The translations under genes and the position numbers were made by a program. This document shows, one piece after another, positions 2,656-3,020 of a stretch of 32,000 bases of DNA. Below the pieces are notes generated by a model. It did not search any database. It was given only the letters and a program-made list of their open reading frames with translations, and was not told the DNA's origin. The stretch is from Candidatus Jordarchaeales archaeon (GTDB lineage: Archaea; Asgardarchaeota; Jordiarchaeia; Jordiarchaeales; Freyrarchaeaceae): assembly GCA_038858525.1 (NCBI GenBank), contig JAWCFL010000006.1:1-32000 (forward strand). The letters are read 5' to 3'. Within the stretch, counting starts at the first letter, position 1. Every line of letters starts with the position of its first letter.

Positions 2656-2815
2656 TGGTGGGCCCGGCGAGAGACCCGGCGAGAAACTTTCGGACTCGCT
2701 GGATAGCCTTCACAGCCAACCACTCGCGACCTCCCGGTTTCAAACCCGCTACAAAGCGAGTTATCAGCCGGGCGCTTTAGCCGCTAAGGCTCTAACCAGG
2801 CTGAGCTACGGGCCC
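2656..2815 (-). tRNA. tRNA-Ile(GAU) with four predicted introns and encoded CCA
   Basis: Exons 2815-2792, 2776-2762, 2738-2723, 2694-2689 and 2672-2656 join to GGGCCCG TA GCTC AGCCTGGTTA GAGC G CCCGG CTGATAA CCGGG AGGTC GCGAG TCCGAAT CTCGC CGGGCCC A CCA (78 nt), with all four stems perfectly paired. Anticodon GAT at 2765-2763, discriminator A73. Confidence 0.9.
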
Positions 2816-3020
2816 ACTCAGTTTGAGCATTTCCCATCGGTTCTTTTATGGTTTTCGGTTTCACCCCCTATTAAAAAGGGGACAAATCCTACGCTTTCCT
2901 TAAACCAAACTAATAAAGCATTCCTCTACATCCCCCCTATCTGGTGAGGAAGAGTAAATTTTATAACAAGTTCTACTCGTTGTAGCTTCGAAGCCAAAAA
3001 GGAAAAGGAAGGGATATTTT

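Follow-up and report, generated by a model that had tools for sequence, protein, structure and literature searches.

The window analysed here, a stretch of 32,000 nt that forms positions 1 to 32,000 of contig JAWCFL010000006.1, comes from a Candidatus Jordarchaeum genome of the Asgard archaea (assembly GCA_038858525.1, hereafter G000; 2.09 Mb, metagenome-assembled in 63 contigs, 92.7% complete, 47% GC). On its minus strand, at 2815–2656, lies a 160-nt stretch that has an acceptor pairing of 7 bp and an encoded ACCA tail at its borders, and whose interior reads as the five exons and four introns of a tRNA-Ile(GAU) gene. When four segments of 15, 23, 28 and 16 nt are taken out, 78 nt including CCA remain, which ARAGORN calls as tRNA-Ile(gat), with an acceptor stem of 7 bp, a D stem of 4 bp, an anticodon stem of 5 bp and a T stem of 5 bp. 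The spliced tRNA has U8, A14, G18 G19, U33, U54, C56 and A58; position 55 is a C. The initial annotation had placed these four segments within a tRNA-Ile(GAU) and had their coordinates right, and it had also foreseen that standard annotation would miss or mis-call the gene: left unspliced, the locus receives no call from ARAGORN with or without intron search, and no match to the tRNA model of Rfam, either at the gathering threshold or at E-values up to 10.

The gene was BLASTed against 40 related genomes, and the same locus was recovered in four members of the family (G001–G004), with which each part of the gene can be compared. Exon 1 (2790–2815, minus strand like all that follow; mature nt 1–24 in the 24/25 register) supplies the 5' strands of the acceptor and D stems, the D loop and most of the 3' strand of the D stem; it is the same as in G003 and differs at one position (A9G) from G002 and G004. 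Intron 1 (2775–2789, 15 nt) lies in the D arm, with 24/25 as its best register, and has an HBh' motif in which H is UUAG/CUAA, both bulges are AG^C and the inner helix is 2 bp long; it is not present in G001, G002 or G004, and it differs from its counterpart in G003 at three positions, none of them in H or the bulges. Exon 2 (2762–2774, nt 25–37) holds the 5' strand of the anticodon stem, the anticodon GAU and A37, and is followed at the canonical 37/38 site by intron 2 (2739–2761, 23 nt), an hBHBh' motif in which h is the 5-bp anticodon stem, H is CUGA/UUUG (3 of 4 pairs, with a U33.U mismatch) and h' is 6 bp; in G003 this intron is altered once in its loop and once in its stem, where U-A has become U.G.

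The 3' half of the gene is more finely divided. Exon 3 (2723–2738, nt 38–53) comprises the 3' strand of the anticodon stem, the variable loop AGGUC and the 5' strand of the T stem. Intron 3 (2695–2722, 28 nt), at 53/54, has an HBh' motif with CGCG/AGCG as H, in which 3 of 4 positions pair, and an inner hairpin of 6 bp that contains one U.U mismatch; at this same site, G004 carries another, unrelated-looking intron of 17 nt. Exon 4 (2689–2694) consists of six nucleotides, UCCGAA, which are T-loop nt 54–59 with the C at position 55, and its counterpart in the orthologues is TTCGAA or TTCAAA. Intron 4 (2673–2688, 16 nt), at 59/60, has a full hBHBh' motif in which h is the 5-bp T stem, H is UCCG/CGGG and the bulges are AA^A and UC^U, and exon 5 (2656–2672, nt 60–76) completes the tRNA with U60, the 3' strands of the T and acceptor stems, A73 and CCA. 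Upstream of the gene, the 17-nt block CCGAAAACCATAAAAGA (2842–2858, minus strand; -43 to -27) is conserved across G000–G004, and in these five family members no other part of the intergenic region upstream is well conserved; it is likely a BRE/TATA promoter element.

The same locus in related genomes

In all five genomes the gene order is the same, a Roadblock/LC7 gene, the tRNA and an acyl-CoA dehydrogenase gene (protein identities from Pfam). What lies inside the tRNA gene varies. In G003, a second species of the same genus, the gene is 157 nt long and has the same four introns; a search for four-intron genes in relatives, which the initial annotation had proposed, thus found one close at hand. 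G001 and G002, also of the same genus, have genes of 97 and 98 nt, each with one intron at 30/31 and without any of the four inserts of G000, and G004, from a sister genus, has a gene of 115 nt with an intron at 30/31 in addition to the 17-nt intron at 53/54. At 30/31, the intron forms a full hBHBh' motif in each of G001, G002 and G004. Once spliced, the G000 and G002 sequences are identical at 76 of 78 positions, the differences being A9G and position 55, and the spliced G000 and G001 sequences differ at two positions plus one extra base. These comparisons fix the partition into exons and introns independently of any splicing motif, and they rule out chance and assembly error as its source. 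In metagenomes, the 16-mer that runs from intron 3 through exon 4 into intron 4 matched 119 loci, none of them in a tRNA context, and we take these to be chance matches.

Between G000 and G003 the exons differ at 0 of 78 positions, and the inserts at 12 of 83 aligned columns (Fisher P = 3e-4). The changes in the G003 inserts spare the central helices and bulges, and the hairpin of intron 3 has a compensatory change from U-A to C-G. Identical exons in two species whose inserts and flanks have diverged indicate purifying selection. Could the inserts nevertheless be an artefact of assembly or binning? Nothing specific speaks for this beyond the bare fact that the genome is a 63-contig metagenome assembly, whereas the same architecture, with substitutions of its own, recurs in G003, another species that was assembled independently, and the inserts lie exactly at bulge-helix-bulge (BHB) registers; an artefact of this kind is scarcely conceivable.

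A decaying pseudogene is a second reading to be weighed; according to this, the locus would have taken up four insertions and U55C, and the tRNA-Ile(GAU) that works would be encoded in the 7% of the genome missing from the assembly. C55 is indeed unusual and the assembly is indeed incomplete, and a second tRNA-Ile(GAU), whose presence elsewhere the initial annotation had wanted checked, was not found in the 92.7% that is covered. The sister genomes speak against decay. The exons are identical in two species despite diverged inserts and flanks, the promoter-like block and all BHB cores are conserved, and by position the locus is orthologous to the sole tRNA-Ile(GAU) seen in G002, a genome that is 95% complete in 8 contigs. 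Even the odd T loop has a parallel, as an intronless tRNA-Ile(GAU) of another Asgard genome (G014) has the same TCCGAAT loop. We therefore regard decay as very improbable, and we continue with the locus as a working gene.

Splicing motifs and splicing enzymes

The Marck–Grosjean geometry of BHB motifs was coded following a preprint of October 2026 (bioRxiv 10.64898/2026.10.13.758758): the four exon bases before a 3-nt bulge pair with the four intron bases before the 3' bulge, and the cut position is after the second bulge base. All registers that yield an identical product were scored, which matters for intron 1, as the 22/23, 23/24 and 24/25 registers give one and the same tRNA. The best BHB is obtained at 24/25 (2789–2775), with four Watson–Crick central pairs, and this register still scores in G003; at 22/23, pairing is attained only through G.U pairs, and in G003 this register is rejected by the classifier. 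In other words, the product that the initial annotation had derived by placing this intron at 22/23 or 23/24 stands, and its choice of register gives way to 24/25.

The annotation's broader statement, that each junction fits a strict or relaxed BHB, is borne out, with 4 of 4 central pairs in introns 1 (at 24/25) and 4, and 3 of 4, the relaxed class, in introns 2 and 3. The flanking helices differ among the four: h' of 2 bp in intron 1; h of 5 bp and h' of 6 bp in intron 2; h' of 2+4 bp and no outer helix in intron 3; h of 5 bp and h' of 2 bp in intron 4. The helices that had been named beforehand are all present, namely CTCGCT/AGCGGG; GGTTGGC/GCTATCC, which has a single U.U mismatch; CGCG/AGCG, in which 3 of 4 positions pair; and TCCG/CGGG, stacked on the T stem. 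How demanding is such a motif? Against shuffled introns, the observed BHB class has P = 0.022 for intron 1, 0.072 for intron 2, 0.13 for intron 3 and 0.0018 for intron 4, so that the 3-of-4-pair class of introns 2 and 3 is one that the shuffle null attains in 7% and 13% of trials; when windows are placed arbitrarily within the gene, only 1.6% of them reach the three best BHB classes.

Other kinds of interruption were considered and rejected. Group I and group II introns are of ribozyme size (>200 nt), compared with 15–28 nt for these inserts, and no Rfam intron family matched; a split or permuted tRNA is incompatible with exons that are collinear within 160 nt.

Folding of the precursor adds a detail about introns 3 and 4. 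Intron 3 ends in five bases, GCGAG (2695–2699), that duplicate the 5' strand of the T stem (2723–2727, both on the minus strand), and this copy can therefore either enter the central helix of its own intron or supply an outer helix for the BHB of intron 4, never both together. In constrained folds of the primary transcript, the energies are -71.1 kcal/mol with none forced (the minimum-energy fold), -69.7 with intron 4 only, -66.7 with intron 3 only and -47.8 with all four; the fold that has the intron-4 BHB with the intron-3 GCGAG as its outer helix is thus within 1.4 kcal/mol of the minimum. Given these energies and the dual pairing of intron 3, stepwise processing with refolding is to be expected, and in this model introns 3 and 4 are probably removed one after the other. 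The minimum-energy folds that unconstrained RNAfold gives for the spliced and precursor sequences show neither a cloverleaf nor the full set of four BHBs; this failure carries no weight because the spliced sequences of the orthologues fail likewise.

The genome also encodes enzymes appropriate to such introns, namely two paralogues of the splicing endonuclease EndA and an RtcB ligase. The EndA on contig C3 (191 aa; 81,8xx–82,3xx) has as its best match the catalytic subunit of Aeropyrum pernix, to which it aligns end to end; it keeps the catalytic His, is gap-free over the crenarchaeal-specific loop and has a Lys aligned to A. pernix Lys44 (counted from the alignment). The EndA on contig C43 (198 aa; 5,6xx–6,2xx) has an Ala at the position of the catalytic His125 of M. 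jannaschii, which fits what would be expected of a structural beta subunit. Judged by these residues, the pair suggests an endonuclease of the broad-specificity (alpha-beta)2 type. In the available part of PMC3241643, the crenarchaeal-specific loop of (alpha-beta)2 EndA is tied to broad specificity, and the 2026 preprint reports that, of 60 Asgard genomes, 44 carry two EndA paralogues. The initial annotation had argued that these introns imply a broad-specificity endonuclease, and the two paralogues, one of them with the catalytic His, do look like such a two-subunit enzyme.

With motifs and enzymes in hand, we can ask whether all four inserts are indeed removed. It is conceivable that one or more of them is left unspliced, so that the mature tRNA would have an enlarged D loop or an expanded T arm, the candidates being the 15-nt insert in the D arm and the insert at 53/54, whose central helix is imperfect. 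According to the available text of the preprint, tRNAscan-SE leaves many Asgard D-arm insertions inside the "mature" tRNA, and splicing in its census is predicted; moreover, intron 3 has 3 of 4 central pairs and is without an outer helix. Against retention, intron 1 at 24/25 has a helix of four Watson–Crick pairs between 3-nt bulges, which is conserved in G003 while the interior varies; with 15–28 nt more inside the D stem, or at the border of T stem and T loop, the cloverleaf would be lost; and in the congeners the same tRNA comes from genes that lack these inserts. Retention is accordingly quite improbable. The exon and intron boundaries are established by homology, and BHB-compatible geometry and the enzyme genes are also shown; on this evidence, we assign a probability of roughly 0.88 to the reading of 2815–2656 as a functional tRNA-Ile(GAU) gene, present in a single copy, whose four short introns, at 24/25, 37/38, 53/54 and 59/60, are of the BHB type.

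How this gene is transcribed and its precursor cleaved, in which order the introns leave, and which base the mature tRNA has at position 55 are matters of inference, and we put them as a proposal. Transcription from the BRE/TATA-like upstream block would yield a single precursor of ~160 nt, and at each junction the RNA would form a 4-bp helix between two 3-nt bulges. Introns 3 and 4 would probably leave stepwise, given their shared use of the 3' end of intron 3, and the five exons would be ligated by RtcB into a tRNA that would have C at position 55.

Interrupted tRNA genes in this and other archaea

The tRNA-Ile(GAU) gene is not an exception in its genome; tRNA gene interruption in G000 is genome-wide. 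ARAGORN detected 11 tRNAs and Rfam 5 above threshold. A screen for GC islands with acceptor stems gave 7,468 candidates, a number that reflects the 47% GC of the genome, and filters for D-arm and T-loop words reduced these to a rough list, which is not a census, of tRNA-like loci of 73–199 nt, the 18 strictest of which have a median length of ~133 nt. One case is a tRNA-Arg(GCG) gene of 169 nt (contig C4, 38169–38337, plus strand) with five BHB introns of 14, 17, 16, 28 and 19 nt: spliced, it becomes a 75-nt cloverleaf that ARAGORN calls as tRNA-Arg(gcg), and all five junctions have 4 of 4 central pairs. G000 itself thus has a tRNA gene with more than four introns. Compared with the tRNA-Ile(GAU), this gene shares genome and intron type and has five introns, not four; furthermore, G003 and G002 retain its long form, at 174 and 172 nt, with a shorter match in G004 (148 nt, 70% identity), whereas the intron set of the isoleucine gene varies among congeners.

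Three tRNA-Ala genes (CGC, TGC and GGC), all on minus strands, have three introns each; they lie on C4 (42,1xx–42,354), C3 (49,4xx–49,582) and C1 (25,8xx–26,022). T-arm introns at 53/54 and 58/59 are common to all three and a D-arm intron to two of them; these sites (D arm, 53/54, 58/59) are the same as, or adjoin, three of the sites in tRNA-Ile(GAU). Compared by eye, the introns of tRNA-Ile and tRNA-Ala at the same or adjacent sites show no similarity beyond what the BHB imposes. Finally, a 199-nt tRNA-Trp(CCA) gene (contig C5, 47059–47257, plus strand) gives, after removal of 23, 82 and 20 nt, a 74-nt sequence that ARAGORN calls as tRNA-Trp.

How does this compare with what has been described before? 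In the Thermoproteales, no tRNA gene is known to have more than three introns. The initial annotation had taken three as the general maximum, and a four-intron Asgard tRNA as perhaps unreported; the first figure reflects the older literature on Thermoproteales and is exceeded by published Asgard genes with four and five introns as well as by the tRNA-Arg(GCG) of G000, and the claim of novelty does not survive either, as genes with four introns were tabulated in 2024 and up to five are given in the preprint. Specifically, Valentin-Alvarado et al. 2024 (PMC11291895) found 92–95% of tRNA genes interrupted in Atabeyarchaeia and Freyarchaeia, noted that some introns were missed by tRNAscan-SE and that non-canonical positions were common, and included an "intron 4" column in Supplementary Data 4. 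Counted on the structure drawings of that paper, four introns are present in Freyarchaeia Arg-TCT, Ile2-CAT and Leu-GAG and in Atabeyarchaeia-2 Trp-CCA, and Atabeyarchaeia-2 Lys-TTT has four by tRNAscan-SE and three on the drawings. The Freyarchaeia tRNA-Ile(GAT) itself has two introns in 136 nt, as against four in 160 nt in G000; these lineages and G000 are alike in being Asgard archaea with multi-intron tRNAs and differ in family and species.

The October 2026 preprint (10.64898/2026.10.13.758758) comes closer still. Its available text describes a census in Jordiarchaeaceae, Freyrarchaeaceae and Atabeyarchaeaceae, with ~2.0–2.4 intervening sequences per tRNA gene and a maximum of five in one gene, an enrichment at BHB boundaries, many recent gains, D-arm inserts that tRNAscan-SE systematically misses, and two EndA paralogues in most genomes. 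G000 belongs to one of the families covered, and the available portion of the text makes no mention of the intron-set swap or of C55. The multi-intron tRNAs of Thermoproteales (Sugahara et al. 2008, as referred to in the accessible part of PMC11291895) resemble those of G000 in having BHB introns at non-canonical positions and, according to the available part of PMC3241643, an EndA of the (alpha-beta)2 type in which the crenarchaeal-specific loop is present; they belong to another phylum and have a lower intron burden than G000, for example 1.54 introns per gene in Pyrobaculum calidifontis as given in the available text of the preprint. The four-intron tRNA-Ile(GAU) is thus a clean example of a published phenomenon and no discovery. 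The remaining value of the locus is comparative, and the specifics that remain of interest are the swap of intron sets within one genus and C55.

Intron turnover and position 55

For the intron sets, a local tree of three flanking proteins (725 aa) gives the order (G004,(G002,(G001,(G000,G003)))), with supports of 0.87–0.90. Read on this tree, the 30/31 intron is ancestral and was lost on the short stem leading to G000 and G003, where three or four introns arose. As reconstructed from these sequences, the turnover appears as either a burst at one locus or a replacement of the allele; the flanks of the tRNA gene give no indication of a replaced block.

In most tRNAs, position 55 of the T loop is U, modified to pseudouridine, and this is nearly universal. 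The spliced T loop of G000 reads UCCGAAU, and its C55 pairs with a G within the central helix of the 59/60 intron; put differently, U55C turns what would be a U.G in that helix into a C-G. The congeners without the 59/60 intron have U55, and the other recognisable tRNA genes of G000 read TTC at this place. It is tempting to join the two observations in a single event, be it a replaced allele or insertions made in concert, in which the 30/31 intron was lost, those at 24/25, 37/38 and 59/60 came in (with the one at 53/54 gained or regained), and C55 was selected for spliceability. We consider this combined account doubtful; C55 may simply be tolerated, because the intronless tRNA-Ile of G014 has the same loop.

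If the combined account were true, the intron load would have reshaped a near-invariant tRNA nucleotide, and the locus would be a datable natural experiment on the arrival of archaeal tRNA introns, a question left open by the 2026 preprint. Four syntenic orthologues, three intron sets in one family and U55C together make a compact test of BHB intron turnover and exon adaptation.

There is a practical side as well. Jordarchaeum genomes defeat standard finders such as ARAGORN and the tRNA model of Rfam, which recover 5–11 tRNAs here and leave the essential tRNA-Ile(GAU) invisible, and annotation pipelines will as a result report false tRNA gaps. The opposite strand offers a small illustration: a 100-codon open reading frame on the plus strand of the window, at 2645–2947, runs antisense over the tRNA gene and the promoter block; it is probably spurious, and gene finders could call it because the tRNA is unannotated.
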